A stretch of DNA of 32,000 nt from Candidatus Iainarchaeum sp. GTDB taxonomy: Archaea > Iainarchaeota > Iainarchaeia > Iainarchaeales > JAZDEL01. Each line of letters opens with the position of its first letter. Within the stretch, counting starts at the first letter, position 1. The notes below the pieces were generated by a model. The model saw only the letters and a program-made list of their open reading frames with translations, was not told the origin of the DNA and did no database searches. The stretch lies in NCBI GenBank assembly GCA_043808785.1, contig JAZDEL010000006.1, forward strand, positions 81,831 through 113,830, read 5' to 3'. Shown piece by piece: positions 2,038 through 14,177 of the stretch. The translations under genes and the position numbers were made by a program.

Positions 2038-2775
2038 TTATATTAATGGTTTCTTCATCTTAAGGAACCCTGTTGGGCGCCTTTTCACCCTTAAGTCCCT
2101 TTGCGGGAAATGTTCGTAAATCGGCGTGTTGTTCCGTCTCGTTTCCAGCGCAAGCCTAGCCTTTTGATAGTTGTCAATCAGTGCATTTAGTTCCTTTTTC
2201 GGCACATTTCCTGCGGCGTGCGCTTGCTGGATTTTTTTGTGCAGGCTGAGTAATTCCCATTCAAGCCTGCCGACTTTTTGAGAGGGCGGGATTATGTGTT
2301 CAGCGGCATGGCTCTCAATAGCCGATTTGAGCCCGACAGGCATTTCCGTGGACGGTTTGCCAATTTTTTTCTTCCGCTGCCCGAGTTTCCTTGCAACTTT
2401 GTTTATTTCATTTAACGAATGTACTAGCAGGTCGTTTAACGAAACGAAGTGCACTCCGCTGCCCTTGAGGGCCGCCTTCGCTATATTTTTGTAGTCCGCG
2501 GGCGCAGCGGTATATGCAATAACCGTGCTTTTTTTGGCGGCAGACCTCAGAAAAGGTTCAAGGAAAACAATGTGTGGCCACTTGTCATGGAATAAATCTG
2601 ACATAACAACATCAAAGGTTTTACTTTGTATCAGCCCATTTGCCTTCGTAAAGTCGTCACACACGGTTATTTCGCAATTAGCCCACTTCTTCATATAAGA
2701 AACGAGCGACTCCGACAACTTCGGGCTGTCTTCCACAAGCAGGACTTTTGGCACCCCCGTCTTTTGCTTTGCCAC
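2038..2775 (-). CDS. CheY-like receiver domain protein with uncharacterised helical C-terminal half
   Basis: 245 aa with a GTG start 2 nt after the UbiD-like stop. N-terminus reads KVLLVEDS...FDVVMSDL...VIAYTAAP, so the acidic pocket, phospho-acceptor Asp and Thr positions are recognisable. The conserved Lys position appears to be missing (HFVSLND). The C-terminal ~110 aa are basic and helical with no motif I recognise. Confidence 0.6.
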   Translation of the reverse strand: MAKQKTGVPKVLLVEDSPKLSESLVSYMKKWANCEITVCDDFTKANGLIQSKTFDVVMSDLFHDKWPHIVFLEPFLRSAAKKSTVIAYTAAPADYKNIAKAALKGSGVHFVSLNDLLVHSLNEINKVARKLGQRKKKIGKPSTEMPVGLKSAIESHAAEHIIPPSQKVGRLEWELLSLHKKIQQAHAAGNVPKKELNALIDNYQKARLALETRRNNTPIYEHFPQRDLRVKRRPTGFLKMKKPLI

Positions 2776-2777
2776 AG

Positions 2778-4085
2778 TTAGTTCCCCTTCAAAAATTTGC
2801 CAATGTCAACCTTCGGCACAGGCACCTTTGAAAAATCCTTCCCGTGCGCAACTATGGGCTTCGTCATGTCGAACCCCGCCTTGCACGTCGCCCTCGTGTT
2901 CGGGTCCGCGCTCGGGTCTATGCTCGACCCTTTTTCATTCGGCTTCATAACGAAATCCTTGTCCGCCTGGAAGCGCGTTGACATCGCCCACTCGACATCC
3001 TGCGGATTGTAGATGTTTATGTCGTCATCAACAACAAAAACATGCTTGCACGACCTGTGCCCGCGCATTGCGGCTTCAATAGCCCTCTTCCCGTCCTCTT
3101 CCGCGCGCTTCTGTATCTGCACAATCACGTGCAGCCACGAGCACCCGCCCGTGCTTACAAAAACATCCCTGCATTTCACGCCCGCCTTCTCCACTTCCTT
3201 GAATACCGTGGGCTCCTTAGGCATCCCCATCAGCAGCCTGTGCTCGTAATATGAGGAAAGAAGCGCGTGGTAAATAGGGTTCTTCCTGTGCGTGATTTTC
3301 TTCACCTCAAAAACAGGCTGCTCCCTCTGCACGTCCATGGTTCCCGTCAAATCAACAAACGGCCCCTCCTTCGCGGTTTCCTTTGTGAAGCGCCCTTCAA
3401 GGACGAACTCGGCGTCGGCGGGAACCATGACGTCCGTGCTTTTTGCTTTTGTTATTTTCAATGGTTCAAGCGTGTTTGCAATCGTGAACTCGTCGATGCC
3501 GAGGTCCACGGATGTCGCCCCCGCAAGCAGCACATTCGGGCTCATGCCTATGCAGAACGCGGCATCAAGTTCTCCGTCATTGCGCTTTATGAACTCGTTC
3601 AGGTGCCTCTCAAGTATGCGCATCGTGAACTTATTTTTCCCAATCTGCAGCGCCCTGTGGAAAGAAAGGTTCATTCCCGCCTCGCGGTCGCGTGCAAAGA
3701 CAATGCCGGCCGTAACATAGTTGCCTGCTTCCCCCCCGAAGTGGTGCAGCAGCGGCAGCTTGTCAAGGTCAACAGGCATCTCCATTTCCTTGCATGGCGC
3801 GTCCTTCACAACCGCAGGCTCCGTCCTTGCATCCAGCGCCCTAATCATGCGCGGAATTAATTCCCGTGTTTTTATCCCGAAATACTCCGCAATCAAATCC
3901 TTCGTGCTGAAAAAATTCGCGGCAGTCCGTATTCCCGTTCCCCCGATATCCTCGAAAACCATCGGCTGTTCCGGCATTGCAGCCATTATCCCCGCAGCCT
4001 CGAACTTCTTCGAAACCTTGCCTGAAATTTTCCTGACCCTGCCCTGCTTCTCCAATTTTGCAACGAACTCCCTGAAACCCATCAT
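2778..4085 (-). CDS. UbiD-family decarboxylase; putative anhydromevalonate phosphate decarboxylase
   Basis: 435 aa with UbiD-like features throughout (e.g. FVVDDDINIYNPQDVEWAMSTRFQADKD). GGAGGG lies 5 nt upstream of the ATG. Flanked by UbiX, MVK and AcnX genes. Confidence 0.88.
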   Translation of the reverse strand: MMGFREFVAKLEKQGRVRKISGKVSKKFEAAGIMAAMPEQPMVFEDIGGTGIRTAANFFSTKDLIAEYFGIKTRELIPRMIRALDARTEPAVVKDAPCKEMEMPVDLDKLPLLHHFGGEAGNYVTAGIVFARDREAGMNLSFHRALQIGKNKFTMRILERHLNEFIKRNDGELDAAFCIGMSPNVLLAGATSVDLGIDEFTIANTLEPLKITKAKSTDVMVPADAEFVLEGRFTKETAKEGPFVDLTGTMDVQREQPVFEVKKITHRKNPIYHALLSSYYEHRLLMGMPKEPTVFKEVEKAGVKCRDVFVSTGGCSWLHVIVQIQKRAEEDGKRAIEAAMRGHRSCKHVFVVDDDINIYNPQDVEWAMSTRFQADKDFVMKPNEKGSSIDPSADPNTRATCKAGFDMTKPIVAHGKDFSKVPVPKVDIGKFLKGN

Positions 4086-4133
4086 GAACCCTCCAAACCA
4101 TTGCCGCGTTTTTTGTTTTGTTATTTTGTTTTT

Positions 4134-4727
4134 TTATTTCCGATTCCCCGCAATTGCTTGCTTTCCTTCCCAGCGCCTGTAAAGGTTGTTCTCCAACCCA
4201 ATTAAATCCATAACCTTCCCCGCAACAAAGTTCTCCAAATCGCCTATGGTTTTGGGTTTGTGGTAAAACCCGGGGCTGAGCGGAAAGACAATCCCTCCGG
4301 CAACCGCAATCTTGTGCAGGTTCTCGAGTGCGGGTGCGCTCAGCGGAGTCTCCCTCACGCACACGACCAGCGGCTTCCTTGTGCGCAGCATGTTGTCGGC
4401 ACAGCGCGTTATAAGCGTGTTTGTGTACGCATTAGCAATCCCCGAGCACGTCTTCACGCTCGTGGGAACAACAACCATTGCATCCACTTTAAACGAGGTG
4501 CTTGAAACCTTTGCCCCCATCTCCTTTTCCGAGTAGTGGAAGTGCGCCAGTTCTTTTATTTGCTTTGCCCCAATGTTCGCTTCGGCCTTAACCAGTTCCT
4601 CCGCCCACTCGCTCATTATCAGGTGCATCTCAACGCCCCTTTCCTTCCCCAGCGCCTTAAGCAGTGCAACCGCGTAATTCACTCCAGATGCGCCGCTCAT
4701 TGCAATAATTATCCTGCGCTTAGCCAT
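4134..4727 (-). CDS. ubiX: UbiX flavin prenyltransferase (prFMN synthase)
   Basis: MAKRRIIIAMSGASGVNYAVALLKAL...VVPTSVKTCSGIANAYTNTLITRCAD. The ATG at 4727 lies 1 nt after the MVK stop. The track start at 4736 is GTG. Confidence 0.9.
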   Translation of the reverse strand: MAKRRIIIAMSGASGVNYAVALLKALGKERGVEMHLIMSEWAEELVKAEANIGAKQIKELAHFHYSEKEMGAKVSSTSFKVDAMVVVPTSVKTCSGIANAYTNTLITRCADNMLRTRKPLVVCVRETPLSAPALENLHKIAVAGGIVFPLSPGFYHKPKTIGDLENFVAGKVMDLIGLENNLYRRWEGKQAIAGNRK

Positions 4728-4728
4728 G

Positions 4729-5667
4729 TCACACACCGATTCTTGTTTTCACACTCGAATATCCGAGTTTTTCAATCGCTTCCGCAACCTTCCCCTGCAG
4801 GTCCTTCCCTGGCGTGAGCGCAACCATAAGCCCGCCCCTTCCTGTGCCTGTCAATTTTGCCCCCAGTGCCCCCGCACCGCGCGCGGCACCAACCATCTCA
4901 TCCAACTCATCACAACTAACCGTAATTTTTTGCAGGAGTCCGTGGTTTTTGTTCATCAGACCGCCAACCTTTTTGAAGTCGGAAGCAAGCAGGGCTTTTT
5001 TCGCCTCCTCCGCAATTTTTTCATACTCATCAAAAACCTTCGCGGTTTCGTTTGGTTTTTCATCCTTAAGCCTGCGCACGTCAGCAATCACTTCCTTAGT
5101 GCTGCTTGTCCTCCCGCTGTTGCCTAGCACAATCTCCACAGGCTTCTCCATTTTCAGTTTCTCCATTTCGTTCTTCCCCCCATCAGCGCCCTTCCTGAAA
5201 ACAATCATCCCGCCGTAAACCGCCGCGGTATTGTCAATCCCGCTCGGCGTGCCGTGCGGCCCCTTCTCGCCCTCATATGCGGCCTCGTTTATTTTCTCAT
5301 TATTCCGGCCCATTTTGAACTCGTCATCAATCGCCCGTGCAAGCGCGGTAGCGCACGCCGCGCTCGCCCCCACGCCCGAAGCCGCAACCAATGTTCCGCC
5401 AAGCGTGATGCGCACCTGCTCCTTCACGCCCATGAACGCAAGCACATTCTCAATCAGCGCCTCGTATTCCCCGCGCTTCTGAACCTTATACCCCGGTGTT
5501 TCGGGCCTGTTGTCAACAAGTTCGTATTTTTTCCCGTTTGCCAATTTCACGCGCCCGACCTTGGCAGTTGTCGCATCCCCGAGCGCGCACGCAATCGCGG
5601 ACATTCCATAAACAACGAAATGTTCGCCGAAAAGGATTGTTTTCCCGAAGCCCGAACCAGTGCCCAT
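4729..5667 (-). CDS. mvk: mevalonate kinase (GHMP kinase)
   Basis: MGTGSGFGKTILFGEHFVVYG..., plus the GHMP motif GGTLVAASGVGASAA and C-terminal GAKLTGTGRGG. The track start at 5748 is TTG and translates an A-rich spacer, so I chose the ATG at 5667. Confidence 0.9.
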   Translation of the reverse strand: MGTGSGFGKTILFGEHFVVYGMSAIACALGDATTAKVGRVKLANGKKYELVDNRPETPGYKVQKRGEYEALIENVLAFMGVKEQVRITLGGTLVAASGVGASAACATALARAIDDEFKMGRNNEKINEAAYEGEKGPHGTPSGIDNTAAVYGGMIVFRKGADGGKNEMEKLKMEKPVEIVLGNSGRTSSTKEVIADVRRLKDEKPNETAKVFDEYEKIAEEAKKALLASDFKKVGGLMNKNHGLLQKITVSCDELDEMVGAARGAGALGAKLTGTGRGGLMVALTPGKDLQGKVAEAIEKLGYSSVKTRIGV

Positions 5668-5788: not shown

Positions 5789-6190
5789 TTACTTCACGAC
5801 CCTGAACTTGTAGCCGTAGGCAATCGCCCCTTCTTTCCTCTGCTCGGAAATCTTCCTGAAAACCTTCTCCACATGTGCGCCTATCCTTACCTTTTCATTT
5901 TCGCTGTCCACGACCTGGCTTAACAGCCTCGCGCCGTTCTCAAGTTCTATTATCGCAAGGAAATAAGGCGTTTCGTGGTCGAACCCCGTGGGTCCTGTCA
6001 TTACCTCCGTGTATGAAATAACCTTCCCCTTCCTCGGCATCTGCTTTGCTGAAAGCTTCCCGCGCCTCCTGCAGTTCGGGCAAACTCCCCTTGCCGGGAA
6101 GAAATCCTCGCCGCATGTGCTGCACGAATTGCCGGCAAGCGTGTAGCGCTCGGGGAACTTCCTCCAGATTAACGGCAGTGCTTCGCTCAT
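5789..6190 (-). CDS. DUF35 OB-fold/zinc-ribbon protein (scaffold of the archaeal thiolase/HMG-CoA synthase complex)
   Basis: MSEALPLIWRKFPERYTLAGNSCSTCGEDFFPARGVCPNCRRRG... shows a CxxC...CxxC ribbon followed by an OB-fold-like C-terminus. The ATG at 6190 lies 1 nt after the upstream stop. Confidence 0.85.
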   Translation of the reverse strand: MSEALPLIWRKFPERYTLAGNSCSTCGEDFFPARGVCPNCRRRGKLSAKQMPRKGKVISYTEVMTGPTGFDHETPYFLAIIELENGARLLSQVVDSENEKVRIGAHVEKVFRKISEQRKEGAIAYGYKFRVVK

Positions 6191-6191
6191 T

Positions 6192-7478
6192 TCATGCACC
6201 CCCCGCAACACAATATGCGAATTTATTTCCCGTTAATTTCCTCTCGACAAGCCCCTCTTCAGACATCCGCAATAGAACATCGCGCACATGCCTTCCCGAC
6301 CTTTTGCACGCCTTTGAAATGCCCGAAGCGGTTGCGAGAACGCCCTGCGCATTAAGATTTGTGATTGCTTTAATATAGTTCTCCGAAGCCTCGTGGCGCG
6401 GGAAAGACTCGAGCCCGTCAACATACCTGCCAAGAACATGCACGAGTTTGTTTTCCTTCCGTTCCAGGCCGAAACCGACCTTCTCGAGATATTTCCGCAG
6501 GTTCTCCCTACCGCTTATTATAAGTGTCCAATTGAGCGTAACTTCCCCGCTGCTTTTGAAATTGCGCCCCCTGACGACTATTTTTGATTTAATGCCCATG
6601 ACTTCCAATGACTGCTGAACATCCGACAGCAACTGCGGCTTTTTTGCGGCAGTTTCTTCCGCAGCGGTTGTGGGGCATATCAGAGTAATCACCCTGCAGT
6701 GATAATTATCCACAACACAGCCGTCATCGTCAAACAGCCGTCTCAGGAGGGCTATAAGCGGCTTTCTATCGCCCGCCGCAATGAACTGCCTGGGAATTCC
6801 TAATTCGTAATTATAATTTTTGTTGCCGTCAGGAATCCCGATAGTGCCGAGGATTACGCCGATTATTTTGGGGAAAATTACGCAGGGCACGCCGCTTGTC
6901 GACCTGTGGCGTGCAAACCTGACATCGCCAAATGTGGAAACAACCGCACCCACAAAACTATCGACCTGCTGGCGCTCGTTGTTGAAGTACCAGACGCGCA
7001 TCTTGCTTTTTTCTATCCCGCCGTCGCCCAAAACTCCGCCAACAACAAGCCCGAATTCCTCGGTCAAAATTTCGAAAGGCAGCTTCGGGTTTTTTATTTT
7101 CTCTTTTGATTTCAGGGTTTTCAATTCAATTACTTTCTTTTCTATCTTCCGCCCGTTAATGCCAAGTTCATCCGCAGCCCTGGCCAAAAACGAAAGCGGC
7201 ATGCCGCTCCTTCCGACGGAATACCGCCTTGCGGATTCGCCCCTGCCGAGCCCGAAAGCCCTTGCGATTGCGGAAAACGAGCCGTGTTTCTTCAAGAGCG
7301 CCCCGAATAGTTCCTTCCTGAACTCGGCATCCAGCGTAACGCGAATTTTGCCCGCAGGCAAATCAAAAAGGGAAATGCTCGCCATTTCATCTTCACCAGC
7401 AATAAATATGTTTTTTATCCCCTTAAATAGTTTCGGGAGAGTGCATTTCCGGTGCGAAACAGAAATTTCCGTATTCAT
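6192..7478 (-). CDS. free-standing double-motif LAGLIDADG homing-endonuclease-like protein with N-terminal HTH-like and C-terminal winged-helix regions
   Basis: Two LAGLIDADG motifs are present: FGLVVGGVLGDGGIEKS and LIALLRRLFDDDGCVVD. The C-terminus (ISKACKRSGRHVRDVLLRMSEEGLVERK) looks like a wHTH. The ATG at 7478 forms an ATGA overlap with the thiolase stop. Codons are visibly richer in A/T endings (GAT, ATT, AAT, TAT) than in neighbouring genes. Confidence 0.8.
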   Translation of the reverse strand: MNTEISVSHRKCTLPKLFKGIKNIFIAGEDEMASISLFDLPAGKIRVTLDAEFRKELFGALLKKHGSFSAIARAFGLGRGESARRYSVGRSGMPLSFLARAADELGINGRKIEKKVIELKTLKSKEKIKNPKLPFEILTEEFGLVVGGVLGDGGIEKSKMRVWYFNNERQQVDSFVGAVVSTFGDVRFARHRSTSGVPCVIFPKIIGVILGTIGIPDGNKNYNYELGIPRQFIAAGDRKPLIALLRRLFDDDGCVVDNYHCRVITLICPTTAAEETAAKKPQLLSDVQQSLEVMGIKSKIVVRGRNFKSSGEVTLNWTLIISGRENLRKYLEKVGFGLERKENKLVHVLGRYVDGLESFPRHEASENYIKAITNLNAQGVLATASGISKACKRSGRHVRDVLLRMSEEGLVERKLTGNKFAYCVAGGA

Positions 7479-8644
7479 CTTTTCCCCTCCAGTGCCTGCA
7501 AAATGTGAATCACGCATGTTGCCCCACTCCCCCCGATATTGTGCGTCAGCCCTATGTGCGCATTCTTAACCTGCCTCTTCCCCGTAACCCCCCTTACTTG
7601 CTCGCAAATCTCGATAGCCTGCTTAACGCCTGTTGCGCCGACAGGGTGCCCGCATTTAAGCCCGCCCGAGGTGTTAATCGGGATTTCACCTTTTAGTGCG
7701 GTTTTTCCGTCCTCGCTTGCTTTTCCCCCTTTGCCCTTTTTGAAGAACCCCAAATCCTCTATTGCAAGTATTTCCGCGATTGTAAAGCAGTCATGCACTT
7801 CCGCCAAATCAATATCCGAAATCTTAAGTCCCGACTGCCTGAGCGCCTCCTGCACCGCAACCTTCGTCGCCCACAGTTCGGTAAGGCTCTTCCTGCTAGC
7901 AACGGCAAGAGTATCCGAAGCCTGCGCGCTCGCAATAATCTCGACAGGTTCCTCACACAGTTTTCTTGCCTTATCCGTCGCACACAGGATTGCCGCTGCT
8001 GCACCGTCGCTGATGGGCGAGCAATCCAGCAGTTTCAGGGGAGTTGCAACATACCCTGAATTCATCACATCCTCAATTGTAATTTCATTGTGGAATTGTG
8101 AGTGGGGGCTGTGCATGCCGTTCGCATGGTTCTTCACTGCAACAGCGGCCATCTGTTCCTCCGTTGTTTTGAACTCGTGCATATGCCTCCTTGCAAGCAG
8201 CGCATAGAGTGCGGGGAAAGTTGCGCCCTGGAAAAGCTCGGTTTCCTGGTCCCCCGCGCCCCCCAAAGCAAAGCCCGCTTCCTCGGTGCTTACCTCAGTC
8301 ATCTTCTCCGCCCCGCCGACAGCAACAACATCATACATTCCGGAAGCGATCGCGTGGTAAGCCGCCCTAAGGGCAACCCCGCCAGAAGCGCATGCAGCCT
8401 CAACACGCGTGCTCGGCGCGGGATTCAGCCCTAACTGATCCGCAATAAGCGCCCCAATATGCTCCTGCCCTATGAACCTTCCAGAAGCCATGCATCCGCC
8501 GTAAACCGCCTCTATATCCGCCCCGCTTATGCACGCGTCGCTTATCGCCATTATTCCCGCCTCGGCAATAAGCTCGCGGAACGACTTGCCCCAGTGCTCC
8601 CCGAATTTCGTTATGCCCGCGCCGATAACCGAAACGCTCCTCAT
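7475..8644 (-). CDS. archaeal-type acetoacetyl-CoA thiolase
   Basis: MRSVSVIGAGITKFGEHW...VEAACASGGVALR (nucleophile Cys)...GLKCGHPVGATG...NIGGSGATCV. ATG at 8644; the track start at 8653 is GTG. Confidence 0.9.
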   Translation of the reverse strand: MRSVSVIGAGITKFGEHWGKSFRELIAEAGIMAISDACISGADIEAVYGGCMASGRFIGQEHIGALIADQLGLNPAPSTRVEAACASGGVALRAAYHAIASGMYDVVAVGGAEKMTEVSTEEAGFALGGAGDQETELFQGATFPALYALLARRHMHEFKTTEEQMAAVAVKNHANGMHSPHSQFHNEITIEDVMNSGYVATPLKLLDCSPISDGAAAAILCATDKARKLCEEPVEIIASAQASDTLAVASRKSLTELWATKVAVQEALRQSGLKISDIDLAEVHDCFTIAEILAIEDLGFFKKGKGGKASEDGKTALKGEIPINTSGGLKCGHPVGATGVKQAIEICEQVRGVTGKRQVKNAHIGLTHNIGGSGATCVIHILQALEGKR

Positions 8645-8770
8645 GCCGCGCACCCCGTGCCAATGCCGATTGCGGAAACGCCTCTCATAGCATCAACCCT
8701 TTCGACAAATTTTCCCGCAAAACCCCGCCCGTGAACCCGCGCGCGGTTTTTTGTTTTTTTGCCGCCCCCG

Positions 8771-9817
8771 TCAGAGCGACTTCAGCTTCCTCCTGTGTTT
8801 CGTGTAAAGCGCGTAATCGATGTACTTTTTCTCCTTTACCATTTCAAGCACAGGCACCTTCGCCCTTCTCCCCGGGATGTTCCTTGTGGCAGTAAATGAG
8901 AACGCATCGCTTCCCGCCCCCGAACCGTAACTTACCGCAAGAATTTTCTGCTTCGGCTTTGCAACATCAAGAATGCTCGCCAGGCCCAGCATTGTTGAGC
9001 CCGAGTATGTGTTGCCTATTATGGGCGTTACCAGGCCCTGCTCCAGCCTCCCCCTTTCCACGCCCAGAATTTTCCCCGCGCGCAAAGGAAACTTCCCGTT
9101 GGGCTGGTGGAAAACCACGTAATCGAAATCCGAAACCTTCTCCCCCGTCCTGTTCAGCAGCCCCTTTGCGGCGCCAACCACATGCCTGAAATATGCCGGC
9201 TCTCCTGTGAAACGCCCCCCGTGCTCGGGGAACTCCGCGTGCTGCCTCCTCCAGAAATCGGGCGTGTCAGTTGTGAATGAAAATGTGTCATTAACCCGCG
9301 CAATAATTTCCTTCGGCTTCCTGCCGATTATTATCGCCGCCCCGCCGCTCCCCGCGGTGTATTCAAGCGCATCACCGGGCTTCCCCTGTGCAGTGTCCGC
9401 GCCTATAGCCATCCCGTACTCTATCATTTTGCTCTCGCAAAACCCTATGCACATCTGCACCCCCGCAGTGCCGGCCTTGCACGCAAACTCCAAATCCGCA
9501 GCCATGTACTCGGGCGCTGCGCCTATCGCGTCCCCGACAATTGTTGATGTGGGCTTCACAGCATAAGGGTGGCTCTCGCTCCCCACGTAAAGCGCCCCTA
9601 TTTTGATTGCATCAATCTTCGCGGTTTCCACAGCGCGCCTTGCCGCTTCCACAGAAATGGTTGCGCAGTCCTCGTCATAGGCGGCAACAGCCTTCTCCCT
9701 CACCCCCAGGCCCGCGCTTATGCGCTTTCCGTCCTTTTCCCAGACGCGCGCTATATCCTCGACCGCAATCCTGAACTTCGGCACATATGCGCCGTAACCC
9801 ACAATTCCGCAATCCAT
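8771..9817 (-). CDS. HMG-CoA synthase (archaeal type)
   Basis: MDCGIVGYGAYVPKFRI...DEDCATISVEAARRA...DLEFACKAGTAG (active-site Cys)...VFHQPNGKF...NTYSGS. Confidence 0.9.
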   Translation of the reverse strand: MDCGIVGYGAYVPKFRIAVEDIARVWEKDGKRISAGLGVREKAVAAYDEDCATISVEAARRAVETAKIDAIKIGALYVGSESHPYAVKPTSTIVGDAIGAAPEYMAADLEFACKAGTAGVQMCIGFCESKMIEYGMAIGADTAQGKPGDALEYTAGSGGAAIIIGRKPKEIIARVNDTFSFTTDTPDFWRRQHAEFPEHGGRFTGEPAYFRHVVGAAKGLLNRTGEKVSDFDYVVFHQPNGKFPLRAGKILGVERGRLEQGLVTPIIGNTYSGSTMLGLASILDVAKPKQKILAVSYGSGAGSDAFSFTATRNIPGRRAKVPVLEMVKEKKYIDYALYTKHRRKLKSL

Positions 9818-9842: not shown

Positions 9843-11144
9843 TTAACCTCTCTTTTTATTCTCTTTCCTTTCCCCCGCGGGTTTTGCCGCCTTCTTTCGC
9901 AGATTGACGAGAATTTCCGCTGCGTTATCCGCGGATATCCTGCCGCATTTTGCCATTTCCCCCGCAACCTTCTCAATTTCCCCGCCTTTTGCCCCCGCTG
10001 CAACCGCAACATTCTTCGCATGCAGCCCCATGTGCCCTTTCTGTATCCCCTCCTTCACAATCGCGCGGTTTGCGGCAAATGTCTGCGCAAGCCCGACAGC
10101 GCAGCACACCTCCGCAAGCTCCTTCGCGCTTTTAATTCCCATAATTTTCAATGCAATTTTTGCAAGAGGGTGAGTTTTTGTCGCCCCCCCGACAATTCCC
10201 AAAGCGAGCGGCATTTCCATTTCCCCCGCCAAATCCCCCGATTTGGTTATGTAGAAGTTCTGCAGTGCCCTGTATGTTCCGTCCCTCGCGGCATAGGCAT
10301 GCGCCCCGGCCTCCGCAGCGCGCCAGTCATTGCCCGCAGCAATCAGCACGGCATCGATGCCGTTCATAATCCCCTTGTTGTTCGTGCACGCCCTGAAAAC
10401 ATCCGCCTGCGCAAGCGCGCTTGCATCCGCGATTGCCTCAACCAATTCGCCCCCCAATTCCTCCTTTTTCCACACCGCGCACGCCTTTACGGTGCGGTGT
10501 ATCGCATAATTGCTTATTATTTTAAGGCGCGCCCTGCCGCCTGCCAACCTCTCCAATTCGGGCGCAATCCTCTCGCACATGCTGTTCACGGCATTCGCGC
10601 CCATCGCATCGCCGCAGTTCACGAGGATGTGCATAACCAGCATCTTCCCGCGCTGCGTTTCCACTTCGCGCAGCTGAATTTCCTTTGCGCCTCCCCCGAA
10701 TTTCAGGAGGACAGGGTCGCAGGAATTTGCTGTTTTGAGCAGTGAGGCGGAATTTGCCGTTATCTCGCGCTCCGCCTTCCCGAAATCCTTAACCCCCACC
10801 AGCTGCACCTGCCCTATCATAATCGGTTCGCTCGCCTCCGCCTTGAACCCCCCCAAAGCGCGCGCCAATTTTGCCGCGTTGGAGGCGGCGGCAATAATGC
10901 TCGGCTCCTCGGTAACCATGGGCACAAGATAATCCTTCCCGTTCACGCGGAAGTTCGTCGCAACCCCCATAGGCATTCCGTAAACGCTCACCGCGTTCTC
11001 CACCATCCTGTCCGCGGTCTCGAACTCCAGCCCGCCCTTCCCGAGCGCCGCAACCTCATCAGCGCCGAGCGCGGACTCGCGCTTGAGCACATCAAGCCTC
11101 TCCCCGCGCTTCAATTTGTAAAACCCGCTTATGTCAGATTTCAT
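9843..11144 (-). CDS. HMG-CoA reductase, class II (bacterial-like)
   Basis: TADRMVENAVSVYGMPMGVATNFRVNGKDYLVPMVTEEPSIIAAAS and GDAMGANAVNSMCE match the class II pattern. No membrane domain. Lys-rich C-terminal tail (KKAAKPAGERKENKKRG). Confidence 0.88.
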   Translation of the reverse strand: MKSDISGFYKLKRGERLDVLKRESALGADEVAALGKGGLEFETADRMVENAVSVYGMPMGVATNFRVNGKDYLVPMVTEEPSIIAAASNAAKLARALGGFKAEASEPIMIGQVQLVGVKDFGKAEREITANSASLLKTANSCDPVLLKFGGGAKEIQLREVETQRGKMLVMHILVNCGDAMGANAVNSMCERIAPELERLAGGRARLKIISNYAIHRTVKACAVWKKEELGGELVEAIADASALAQADVFRACTNNKGIMNGIDAVLIAAGNDWRAAEAGAHAYAARDGTYRALQNFYITKSGDLAGEMEMPLALGIVGGATKTHPLAKIALKIMGIKSAKELAEVCCAVGLAQTFAANRAIVKEGIQKGHMGLHAKNVAVAAGAKGGEIEKVAGEMAKCGRISADNAAEILVNLRKKAAKPAGERKENKKRG

Positions 11145-11170: not shown

Positions 11171-11893
11171 TCACGCACCATCAGTAAGCACCTTCAGCCC
11201 CGCATTTTCCAGCAGTTCCTTTGCAGCACACATCTCACTATTTGTAGGGGCTCGAACTCCTTTTAAGGGGAATTTCAGCCCTATCTCCGTCCATTTCCTT
11301 TCGCCGAGCGCACTGTAAGGCAGCAGTTCAACGCACTCCAGCATTTCAAGGGTTTTCGCAAACTCCGCGAGCGCGGCAATATCCGCTTCGGCATCCGTGA
11401 AGCCCGGAACAACCACATAGCGCAGCCTTACGGGCCTGCGCGCCGCGGCAAAGCGTATGTTCGCGAGCGCCTCCCCGTTGCTCCTGCCCGTTATTTCGCG
11501 GTGCCTTTTATCGTCCATATGCTTCACGCTGCACATGAACAGGCTTGTGTAAGGCAGCACGGTTTCGACCGCGGACCTGTCCGCGTACATGCACGAATCC
11601 AGCGCGGTGTGTATTCCGCGTTCGTTGCAGCGCCTCATCACTTCGGCAACGAACCCGGCCTGCATAAGCGGCTCGCCCCCGGAGAAGGTAACGCCGTTTA
11701 TGTACCGCACGCTGCGCTCTATGCCGAGGAACAGTTCCGTTGCAGACATCTTCTTCCCGCCCTTCCCCGCCGCAACATCTATGTTCTGGCAGAACTTGCA
11801 CCTGAGGGGGCAGCCCTGCATGAAAATAACATAGCGCCTTCCCGGGCCGTCAAGGGTGCCGAAACTTTCGACAGAGTGGACCAAACCCTGCAT
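11171..11893 (-). CDS. pflA: pyruvate formate-lyase activating enzyme (radical SAM)
   Basis: VESFGTLDGPGRRYVIFMQGCPLRCKFCQNID contains the CxxxCxxC cluster. Lies immediately downstream of pflB. Confidence 0.9.
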   Translation of the reverse strand: MQGLVHSVESFGTLDGPGRRYVIFMQGCPLRCKFCQNIDVAAGKGGKKMSATELFLGIERSVRYINGVTFSGGEPLMQAGFVAEVMRRCNERGIHTALDSCMYADRSAVETVLPYTSLFMCSVKHMDDKRHREITGRSNGEALANIRFAAARRPVRLRYVVVPGFTDAEADIAALAEFAKTLEMLECVELLPYSALGERKWTEIGLKFPLKGVRAPTNSEMCAAKELLENAGLKVLTDGA

Positions 11894-11921
11894 GCGAAAC
11901 CACGCCGCGGTTTTTTTATTT

Positions 11922-14177
11922 TTATATTTTCTCGTGGAACGAGCGGTTAATCACTTCCAGCTGCTGCTCCCTGCTCAGCCTGCTGAAATTCACCGCGTAA
12001 CCGCTAACCCTTATGGTAAGCAGCGGATATTTTTCAGGATGCGCCATCGCGTCCTTAAGCATCTCCCTGTTCAGCACGTTCACATTTATGTGCTGCGCCC
12101 CCTTTGCGAAATAGCCCTCAAGCAGCCCTGCAAGGTTTTCAACGCGCTCATCCGCGCCTTTCCCGAGGCCCTCCGGCACGACAGAGAACGTGTTGCTTAT
12201 CCCGTCAAGGCAGCTACTGTATGGCAGTTTCGCCACGGAGTTGAGCGAAGCCACTGCTCCGCAGCAGTCCCTTCCGTGCATCGGGTTCGCGCCCGGAGCG
12301 AAAGGCTCGCCCGCCCTTCTCCCGTCCGGCGTTGCCCCTGTCTTCTTCCCGTACATCACGTTGGACGTAATCGTAAGTATGCTCAGCGTGTGCTCCGCGT
12401 GCCTGTATGTGGGGTACTTCTTCAGGAACTGGTTAAACCCGACAACGCCCTCCACTGCAATATGGTCCGCCCTAGCATCGTCATTCCCGTAGCAGGGGAA
12501 TTTCCCCTCCACAACAAAGCCTGTTGCTATTCCGCGCGCGTCCCTTACAGGCTTCACTTTCGCATACTTTATCGCGGAGAACCCGTCCGCAAGCACGCTC
12601 AGCCCCGCAAGCCCGAACGCCATATACCTTTTCACCTTCGTGTCGTGCAGTGCCATCTGCAATGCCTCGTAATTGTATTTGTCGTGCATCGCGTGAATTA
12701 TGTTCATTGCCTCCACGTAGTTCTTCGCAACCCAGTCGGCGAGAACCAAAAAGTTGTTCTTGACCTCGTCGTAATCCAGGTATTCGCCCTGCGGCAGAGG
12801 CACCTGCGGCGCAATCTGCTCCCCGGTAATTTCGTCCTTTCCCCCGTTAATCGCGAGCAGCAGCAGCTTCGCCCCGTTGCACCTCGCGCCGAAGAACTGC
12901 ATCTCTTTTCCCGTGCGCATAGCGGAAACGCAGCACGCTACGGAGTAATCGTCCGAAAAATACGCGCGCATCAGGTCGTCGTTCTCGTACTGTATGGATG
13001 AAGTTTCTGTCGAAACCTTTGCCGCAAACTTCTTGAACTCCGCAGGCAGCGCGCTGCTCCAGAGCACGGTTAAGTTCGGCTCGGGCGCAGCGCCCAGATT
13101 GCGCAATGTCTGCAAAAACCTGTAGCTTGTCCTGCTCACAAGCGGCTCGCTGCTTGCCCCGCCAAGGCAAACCGTAACCCAGTTCGGGTCCCCCGCAAAT
13201 ATTTCGCCGTACTCCTTGGGGCGAAGATGCCTTACAAGGCGCATCTTGATTACTATCTGGTCAACCAGTTCCTGCGCCCCGGCTTCGCTTAATTTTCCCG
13301 CGTCCATATCCCGCCTTATGTAAATATCGAAGAACGAATCAGGCCTTCCGAAGCTCATTGCAGCGCCGTCCTGCTCCTTCACCGCGGCAAGGTAAGCAAG
13401 CCAGGCCCACTGCACGCATTCCCGTGCGTCCTTTGCAGGCTTCCCTATATCGAACCCGTACGATTTCGCCATTTCCTTAAGTTCATGCAGTGCCGCAATC
13501 TGGTTAGCAACCTCCTCCCTCAGGAACGGCCCGTTTGCGTCCATCTTCGCGAGATCCTTTTCCTTTTCCCCAATAAGCCTGTCAACTCCGTAAAGCGCCA
13601 CACGCCTGTAATCCCCTATAATCCTCCCCCTGCCGTAGTTGTCGGGCAGTCCGGTTATCACGCCCGCACTCCGCAGTTTCTTTATCCCTTCAGTGTACGC
13701 GTCAAACACGGCATCGTTATGCGTCTTCCTGTGTTTGGTGAAAATTTCCTTAACCTCCGGGTTCAGTTCAACCCCGTATTCCCCGCACGCCTTCTCAACA
13801 AGGCGTATTCCGCCCTTCGGCTTTATCGCCCTTACCAGAGGCTTCTCGGTTTGCAGGCCGACAATAACCTCGAGCCCCTTTTCAATATAGCCGGGCGCGT
13901 GCGAATTTACAGTTGACGGCTTTGAGCAGTCAATCCCAAGCACGCCGCCCTTTTCCGCCTCCTCTTTCAAGAGTCCCAGGCACCTTCCCCAAAGCTCTTT
14001 TGTGCGTTCGCTCTTGCACTGCAGGAATTCCACACTCCCCAAATAAGGCACATGGTTCTTCTGTATGAAATCCCTTACATCAATAGTGCGCCGCCACTGC
14101 CCCGCATTGAAGCCGCGCCATTCACTAACCTCTTCTGCGGAAGCAATTGCCTGCTGTACGTCGTGCCTATTCTGCAT
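11922..14177 (-). CDS. pflB: pyruvate formate-lyase (formate C-acetyltransferase, glycyl radical enzyme)
   Basis: 751 aa. Active-site [22 protein letters not shown] and glycyl-radical motif [11 protein letters not shown] are both present. The N-terminus ([12 protein letters not shown]) is typical of PflB. Confidence 0.95.

Follow-up and report, generated by a model that had tools for sequence, protein, structure and literature searches.

This analysis concerns one gene within a 32,000-nucleotide stretch of a Candidatus Iainarchaeum sp. contig (JAZDEL010000006.1, positions 81,831 to 113,830 of the forward strand; "the window" below means the whole of this stretch). The gene lies at 6192-7478 on the minus strand, between the genes for acetoacetyl-CoA thiolase and a DUF35 protein in an operon for the archaeal-type mevalonate pathway. 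It is probably a long-resident, likely active, free-standing LAGLIDADG homing endonuclease gene (HEG) that sits at the thiolase 3′ end, is expressed from the operon, and has been patchily lost or gained. This explanation fits best because empty sites are found in relatives, the catalytic acids are invariant, and sister subfamilies lie beside other housekeeping genes. DNA cleavage by the protein, its target site, the homing process and the way in which the gene is expressed are proposed here from comparative sequence data and a predicted structure. The original prediction, made from the letters alone, had offered two readings, the first being a homing endonuclease gene in a conserved junction that is read from the operon transcript. 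That reading remains the best fit, although the invasion is not a recent one and the thiolase-DUF35 pair is not the anchor.

The gene and its encoded protein

The gene is a complete open reading frame (ORF) of 428 aa with its own ATG and TGA. It is real and was predicted at the right coordinates; the prediction gave no strand. At the thiolase junction, minus-strand positions 7478-7475 read ATGA, in which the ATG (7478-7476) overlaps the thiolase TGA (7477-7475). At the other end, the TGA (6194-6192) is followed by a single base (6191) and then by the DUF35 ATG (6190-6188). The letters thus bear out both junctions as first described, and the flanking thiolase and DUF35 proteins are complete, as had also been claimed. 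The gene is an ORF of its own between intact, conserved and abutting genes, outside any intein. A six-frame search of the window with the family hidden Markov model returned this ORF only, with no second copy. The start codon is ambiguous: the longest ORF extends up to 7517, the 428-aa form begins at 7478, and the public gene call begins at M32 (7385), which is also the start of nearly all distant relatives. The main features are given below, with helix-turn-helix abbreviated as HTH, winged helix-turn-helix as wHTH, and B recognition element as BRE; counts out of 63 refer to a sample of diverse family members that are 21-30% identical to the window protein.

7475-8644, minus strand: acetoacetyl-CoA thiolase; its 3′ end is the insertion anchor and the likely target location
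6192-7478, minus strand: full ORF of the LAGLIDADG gene, 428 aa, supported by orthologues and their alignment; it starts with the ATG that shares bases with the thiolase stop and ends with a TGA separated by 1 nt from the DUF35 ATG
7386-7478, minus strand: 5′ leader, or possible 31-aa N-terminal extension, present in the thiolase-associated subfamily only and open in frame in 8/8 lineages
7399-7456, minus strand: conserved nucleotide element of ~58 nt (cACCGGAAAcnCACTCnnTCTCAAAAgnAtTTAA...tATTTaTt) with a BRE/TATA-like stretch; its frame differs among lineages
6192-7385, minus strand: core ORF, 397 aa, from M32 (MASISLFDLP), supported by the public gene call, the N-termini of the wider family, and profile matches from ~31-34
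7104-7385, minus strand: predicted N-terminal HTH-like helical domain and linker I-x-N-P-K-L-P (aa 32-125), from the structural model; P131 in 61/63, P134 in 58/63; HTH_26/HTH_3 matches in relatives
6777-7073, minus strand: LAGLIDADG domain 1 (aa ~136-234) with D152 and K220; D152 and G153 in 63/63, K220 in 58/63; fold matches
6429-6776, minus strand: LAGLIDADG domain 2 (aa ~235-350) with D252 and K341; PF14528 match, E 2e-10; Asp or Glu at 252 in 63/63, K341 in 61/63
6195-6428, minus strand: predicted C-terminal wHTH (aa ~351-428), from the structural model; MarR-type fold matches and a weak TrmB match
5789-6190, minus strand: DUF35 (zinc-ribbon/OB) scaffold protein of the thiolase/HMG-CoA synthase complex, directly downstream of the LAGLIDADG gene

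LAGLIDADG homing endonucleases make site-specific double-strand cuts in a 14-40 bp target and leave 4-nt 3′ overhangs, and an acidic residue at the C-terminal end of each motif serves in metal binding and catalysis. In the window protein, the first motif is VVGGVLGDGG, with the catalytic D152 encoded at 7025-7023, and the second is LLRRLFDDDG, with the catalytic D252 encoded at 6725-6723. The Pfam family LAGLIDADG_3 (PF14528) matches aa 242-335 above its curated cut-off; the first motif has no Pfam match and is supported by an AlphaFold model and a fold search. The model was built from an alignment of 63 sequences (pLDDT 94.9, pTM 0.87). In order, it contains an N-terminal helical domain, the linker, two LAGLIDADG domains and a C-terminal winged helix composed of a three-helix bundle and a beta-hairpin wing. 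Each core domain is predicted to be alpha-beta-beta-alpha-beta-beta-alpha and to open with the LAGLIDADG helix.

In a Foldseek search of the PDB, the best matches to the model were the TliVMA intein endonuclease (E 2.4e-9) and I-Tsp061I (E 2.7e-7), followed by WhiA (3hyi, E 3.4e-6), PI-SceI and many I-DmoI entries, with endonuclease matches ranging from E 2.4e-9 to 1e-4. MarR-type winged helices matched the C-terminus at ranks 49-50. Against viral models, the matches were mainly intein-bearing proteins, together with some phage LAGLIDADG genes. A sequence search of solved structures gave no meaningful match. NCBIfam matches were confined to the endonuclease part of intein-bearing proteins, and no Hint or intein splicing domain was found in Pfam or NCBIfam searches of the 428-aa protein. 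The model therefore describes a single-chain, double LAGLIDADG core that is closest to intein-type and archaeal intron endonucleases. Support for the putative accessory regions (HTH at the N-terminus, wHTH at the C-terminus) comes from the model, from a weak TrmB match (E 0.02), and from HTH matches in relatives. The two motifs and the HTH-like and wHTH-like ends had all been anticipated from the sequence, and the LAGLIDADG resemblance is not spurious, as Pfam, Foldseek and the model all confirm it.

An alignment of nine orthologues shows that both catalytic Asp residues, GNKNY, NPKLP and the Arg-rich helix of the wHTH are invariant. This putative recognition helix, CKRSGRHVRDVLL, is conserved in the subfamily, and R393, R396, R399 and R413 are invariant. 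An inspection of the catalytic acids in an alignment had been proposed at the outset; an acid occupies both positions in all orthologues (9/9) and throughout the diverse sample (63/63), and the second is followed by Gly in 58/63.

Occupied and empty sites

A word-indexed search identified eight relatives that are 44-54% identical to the window protein, the named ones being from Candidatus Iainarchaeum or Diapherotrites; public annotation already names some of them LAGLIDADG endonucleases. Seven of the eight could be placed on contigs, and together with the window they make up eight lineages of one Iainarchaeota-like (DPANN) clade (the alignment holds all nine sequences). The LAGLIDADG gene directly follows the thiolase stop in 8/8 lineages. 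In two of them another small gene precedes DUF35, namely a YbjQ-like gene in L003 and an unrelated 103-aa ORF in L090, which makes the thiolase 3′ end, rather than its pairing with DUF35, the anchor. The junction is conserved, as first proposed for an invaded thiolase-DUF35 intergenic site, but the pair does not serve as the anchor.

Thiolase loci were also scanned using one genome per species, and tblastn was used to look for the LAGLIDADG gene in each of the 80 loci obtained. No copy was found in any of these species-representative loci. Counted by site, 78 of the 80 are empty (three members of the clade and 75 other species), and two further loci have no DUF35 match within range. The gap between thiolase and DUF35 is less than 200 nt, and typically 10-40 nt, in all but seven; the exceptions are L008 (367 nt), L015 (~3 kb), and five loci with no DUF35 match. 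The short-gap loci span Micrarchaeota, Thermoplasmatota, methanogens, Bathyarchaeia and several bacterial phyla. The same gene at the same place in many distant archaea, which would have pointed to an ancestral component, was thus not seen.

Empty sites also occur among close relatives. In a neighbour-joining tree based on HMG-CoA synthase, thiolase and DUF35, three empty genomes fall within a 98%-supported clade of occupied genomes: L007, a Candidatus Iainarchaeum metagenome-assembled genome (MAG) with a 20-nt gap; L035, with an 11-nt gap; and L008, Candidatus Iainarchaeum andersonii. The last of these and the occupied L003 form a sister pair (100% bootstrap support). L008 has the order thiolase-YbjQ-DUF35, whereas L003 has thiolase-LAGLIDADG gene-YbjQ-DUF35, and the two are 75% identical in YbjQ and 79% in thiolase. 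Because these three genomes lack the gene among occupied ones, its presence within the clade is patchy and the empty sites are clean. The comparison of empty and occupied junctions suggested with the original prediction therefore recovers both states.

The thiolase C-terminal tail was considered as a marker of occupied and empty sites and rejected. Two tail types exist, ending in …EGKR or in …RKA/KRA before the stop codon (window 7475-7500; L007:5140-5173; L090 ~1390-1414). Each type is seen in both states, and therefore the tail defines neither target nor immunity.

The window gene belongs to a much larger family. Word-indexed searches with two profiles gained almost nothing, and the wider family emerged when the orthologue profile was run exhaustively with HMMER against 1.84 billion representative proteins. 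Matches were obtained in 2,103 representative clusters at E<=1e-3, 652 at <=1e-10 and 93 at <=1e-30. Most are 380-420 aa long and align from profile position ~31-34 to ~411; this near-full-length matching indicates that the three-module architecture is common to the family and that the ancestral start is M32. In the sample of 63, Pfam detects LAGLIDADG_3 in 46 and scattered HTH_24, TrmB, MarR and HTH_26/HTH_3 (winged-helix and Cro/C1-type) domains; the WhiA model is touched by one of the 63, weakly. Few family members have source names, and these are Aenigmarchaeota (DPANN).

Other members lie beside other genes. For instance, in ftsY-srp54 loci the family member comes directly after SRP54, and the genes downstream of it vary (L093, L095, L096). 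In a pyruvate:ferredoxin oxidoreductase operon, distant relatives (22-23% identity) occupy the space between porA and porD/porG and are encoded on the other strand (L087:1934-2842, L088:2713-3840). Members are also found beside the archaeal Nre gene, a putative DNA-repair gene (L099:316-2831, L100:4001-6434, L101:4001-6525, L102:3979-6503); L101 and L102 represent the same protein, the genes are co-directional in one locus and convergent in three, and the neighbourhood is either a recurrent target or a functional link. One further member lies just upstream of an MMR_HSR1 GTPase gene. Judging from these sequences, sublineages that each track a different housekeeping gene and share an invariant active site form the pattern expected of homing endonucleases, not of pathway regulators.

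Three additional observations concern these loci. The SRP54-associated copy at L093:4001-5222 consists of two overlapping ORFs (4001-4387 and 4362-5222), which points either to a decaying copy with a frameshift or to an error of assembly. The por-operon protein P0010 begins at the first LAGLIDADG motif, and is thus truncated or has a miscalled start. Finally, a second, shorter LAGLIDADG_3 gene (299 aa; L103/L104:7892-8791) lies 2.5 kb from a family member and adjoins an S-adenosylhomocysteine hydrolase gene, and therefore some DPANN genomes hold several such genes close together.

A possible history begins with a PF14528-type single-chain endonuclease that gained an N-terminal HTH and a C-terminal winged helix. 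The protein would recognise a long site at the thiolase 3′ end, or spanning it and the following junction, in genomes that lack the gene, and would cleave there by means of its two conserved acids (D152 and D252). The gene would then be copied in as the break is repaired on the template of an occupied allele ("intronless homing"). By inserting at the stop codon, it would spare both flanking genes and would probably destroy the site. The gene would be transcribed with the operon, and ribosomes would reach it from the thiolase stop through the open leader; a promoter-like element in the leader may also drive the core ORF from M32.

Leader, inheritance and alternative explanations

The leader bears on how the gene is expressed. 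The ~90 nt from the thiolase stop to M32 are open in the core frame in all eight lineages (joint shuffle probability ~1e-8, with lineages treated as independent), and an ATG lies at or beside the thiolase stop in seven, L092 being without one. Together, the open leader and the nearby ATG support translation entering from the thiolase stop. Expression by translational coupling, as first suggested, is plausible because the leader is kept open, although M32 is the core start of the family and a promoter-like element lies within the leader. This conserved element (7399-7456) includes AAAgnATTTAA, which resembles an archaeal BRE/TATA, and its frame is shifted relative to the window in L002 (first half) and L092. 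An nhmmer profile of the leader matched occupied sites only (E 6e-11 to 4e-5). No second copy of the element was found in the 32-kb window, including upstream of the operon; matches with three mismatches were at chance level, and RNAalifold predicted no pairs, and thus no conserved RNA structure, in the leader. The element may be an internal promoter or an operator, both being candidate roles.

The possibility that the leader is a duplicated DUF35 5′ end or thiolase 3′ end, left as a target-site relic, was rejected, as nhmmer matches fell at occupied sites only. A comparison of leader peptides with DUF35 N-termini was likewise non-significant and inconsistent in register (p 0.008 in one lineage and 0.09-0.95 in the others).

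Several observations weigh against the homing endonuclease reading. All copies seen at the thiolase site are intact, and none is decayed, which is atypical for a cycle of gain, decay and loss and also fits a host function. LAGLIDADG and thiolase+DUF35 distances are correlated across the eight lineages (Mantel r 0.72, p ~6e-4), and L001-L004 is the closest pair for every operon gene, the LAGLIDADG gene included. Among the eight lineages there is no pair in which the LAGLIDADG gene is more similar than the host genes. This co-divergence with the operon leaves no sign of recent horizontal spread. Additionally, no relatives were found in phage and plasmid collections. The tight packing at both ends, the open leader and the conserved leader element look like integration into the expression of the operon. 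Codon bias is barely deviant and is weak evidence for foreign origin: the G+C content at third codon positions (GC3) of the gene is 0.559, compared with 0.60-0.69 for its operon neighbours, which makes it the second lowest of 24 genes, and two other ORFs are comparably low (2038-2775 at 0.541 and 815-2020 at 0.570). The earlier statement that its codons are visibly more A/T-ending is therefore mildly true, but as an argument for foreign origin it is weak.

The co-divergence most directly affects the proposed age of the insertion. Pairwise identity across lineages is 38-66% for the LAGLIDADG protein and 64-80% for thiolase, and the divergence of the former is similar to that of HMG-CoA reductase and mevalonate kinase of the same operons. 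Invasion as a recent event can thus be set aside, since gene and operon have diverged together in lineages with thiolases this distant. Discordance between gene tree and host, a mark of intronless homing, is not seen in the eight lineages, which argues against recent spread and not against past homing. According to the sequence comparisons, the gene has been inherited for the most part vertically and under purifying selection, and has been lost or gained on some branches. Co-divergence does not by itself distinguish between selfish upkeep by homing within populations and host-level selection, as it fits either.

The strongest alternative, although an unlikely one, is that a former homing endonuclease has been domesticated and is kept by host selection, acting, like WhiA or the autorepressor I-TevI, as a DNA-binding regulator for the downstream half of the operon or, like HO, as a nuclease with a role in the cell. 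The deep co-divergence with the operon and the intactness of 9/9 aligned copies would be explained in this way. So would the translational-coupling geometry at both ends in every lineage, the open leader with a conserved element beside a BRE/TATA-like motif that could be an operator, the invariant Arg-rich recognition helix of the wHTH, and the structural match to WhiA. However, the gene is missing from three clade members, one of them sister to an occupied genome, and from all other archaea sampled, and therefore it is dispensable for the mevalonate pathway. Its catalytic acids and lysines are invariant, unlike those of WhiA; the leader element has no second copy upstream of the operon or elsewhere in the window; and sister subfamilies adjoin unrelated housekeeping genes, as target-specific selfish elements do and pathway regulators do not. 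The second of the originally offered readings, a domesticated regulator, thus draws support from the deep co-divergence, the absence of decayed copies at the thiolase site and the leader features, and is opposed by patchy presence and retained catalytic residues. A more specific version, in which a dual-function or domesticated protein binds the leader element at 7399-7456 through its HTH and wHTH regions and controls an internal promoter for itself and downstream genes, is more doubtful still. The genes under such control would be those for DUF35, mevalonate kinase, UbiX, the UbiD-like decarboxylase and AcnX.

It is improbable that the gene is an inactive relic, that is, an anciently fixed HEG that no longer cuts and is drifting to loss. 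There is no evidence of recent transfer, and insertion probably destroys the site, so that nothing would be left to cut in occupied lineages. Yet every copy is full length at 38-66% identity; invariance is reported for the pair of catalytic acids, for the lysines, for the NPKLP linker and for the recognition helix of the wHTH; and a divergence like that of HMG-CoA reductase and mevalonate kinase implies ordinary purifying selection. Least probable is an intein remnant, or a fused thiolase-DUF35 gene split by an intein: the Pfam core is of intein type and the best sequence and fold matches are intein endonuclease domains, but no Hint or splicing domain is matched, the gene carries a start and a stop of its own, and the family of ~2,100 clusters is free-standing throughout, at ~400 aa. 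In addition, the thiolase and DUF35 proteins are complete, and most of the 80 other loci encode them in separate neighbouring genes. This agrees with the initial judgement that the gene is not an intein.

Operon context, known systems and significance

On the minus strand, the operon begins with HMG-CoA (hydroxymethylglutaryl-CoA) reductase (9843-11144) and HMG-CoA synthase (8771-9817), which are followed by thiolase, the LAGLIDADG gene and DUF35, and then by mevalonate kinase, UbiX, a UbiD-like decarboxylase, the ORF at 2038-2775 and AcnX. The longest thiolase ORF begins at a GTG at 8653; orthologues begin at the equivalent of the ATG at 8644 (MRSVS…), which is the probable start. The 245-aa ORF at 2038-2775 (minus strand), between AcnX and the UbiD-like decarboxylase, has no Pfam match and the lowest GC3 in the window, and related operons carry a HAD-type hydrolase or other genes at the equivalent position. 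Directly upstream of the operon, 11171-14177 (minus strand) encodes a pyruvate formate-lyase-like glycyl radical enzyme (751 aa) and a radical-SAM activase. The HMG-CoA synthase-thiolase-DUF35 trio also occurs, with thiolase identity of 53-57%, in many bacterial MAGs, including Ignavibacteria, Aminicenantes, Zixibacteria, Acidobacteriota and others (L037-L038, L051-L053, L057, L069, L071-L072, L074-L078, L080, L082-L083, L085-L086). Locus L021 (64% identity), on a contig labelled Saccharimonadales, appears to be a misbinned archaeal contig.

The window protein resembles several known systems in part. Like intein endonuclease domains (PI-SceI, TliVMA/PhoVMA; PF14528), its best profile and fold matches, it has two motifs in a single chain with one acid per motif, and like them it would read a long site through an extra DNA-recognition module. 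Unlike inteins, the gene is separate and has no Hint domain, and its extra modules are an HTH and a wHTH, not the DNA-recognition region of an intein. I-DmoI and I-Tsp061I share the pseudo-dimeric core fold (TM 0.6-0.69 normalised to target) and an archaeal origin, but they are ~180-200 aa proteins of rRNA introns with no accessory HTH, whereas the window protein is ~400 aa and is encoded between protein-coding genes. The yeast HO endonuclease (F-SceII) is a free-standing member of the intein-type LAGLIDADG lineage that has added a C-terminal DNA-binding domain and kept its catalysis outside an intein. HO carries Hint relics and zinc fingers and is domesticated for mating-type switching; in contrast, the window protein has no Hint relics, has an added wHTH, and shows no evidence of a host role.

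Similarly, the seg and mob genes of T-even phages are self-contained ORFs between conserved genes that are polymorphic among relatives, and both they and the window gene are presumed to spread by cleavage of the gene-less allele and co-conversion. However, seg and mob are GIY-YIG or HNH genes of phages, whereas the window gene is a LAGLIDADG gene with a long vertical descent in an essential biosynthetic operon of an archaeal chromosome. WhiA (DUF199) is a bacterial regulator whose double LAGLIDADG fold is degenerate and no longer carries the catalytic acids; it shares the order of two LAGLIDADG domains and then an HTH, and a conserved operon position. WhiA is near-universal in its lineage, whereas the window gene is patchy in its presence and invariant in its acids. 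I-TevI, a GIY-YIG homing endonuclease, is also an autorepressor that acts through an operator overlapping its own promoter, and it offers a possible analogy for the leader element as a candidate operator.

Most known free-standing LAGLIDADG genes come from organelles, and intronless homing has been described chiefly in phages. The window gene lies within an essential archaeal chromosomal operon, packed codon-to-codon between the genes for two partners of one complex, and has stayed intact across deep divergence. No description of the family was found in the literature on free-standing archaeal or DPANN LAGLIDADG genes or on LAGLIDADG intronless homing. The kind of element is itself already known; its architecture, its operon-internal codon-to-codon placement in an archaeal chromosome, and the size of the family appear to be undescribed in the literature searched. 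For annotation, the gene is a warning that the thiolase-DUF35 pair is not always adjacent. If a regulatory role were true, it would represent endonuclease-derived, operon-internal control of archaeal lipid-precursor synthesis, and this would explain intact persistence in reduced genomes. More broadly, the gene provides an entry to a family of ~2,100 clusters with a fixed architecture of HTH, double LAGLIDADG and wHTH. Because each subfamily appears to track its own housekeeping gene, the family would form a natural set of long-site meganucleases with predictable targets. It is also a test case for the persistence of selfish endonucleases in very small genomes, and a marker of gene flow among uncultivated archaea.

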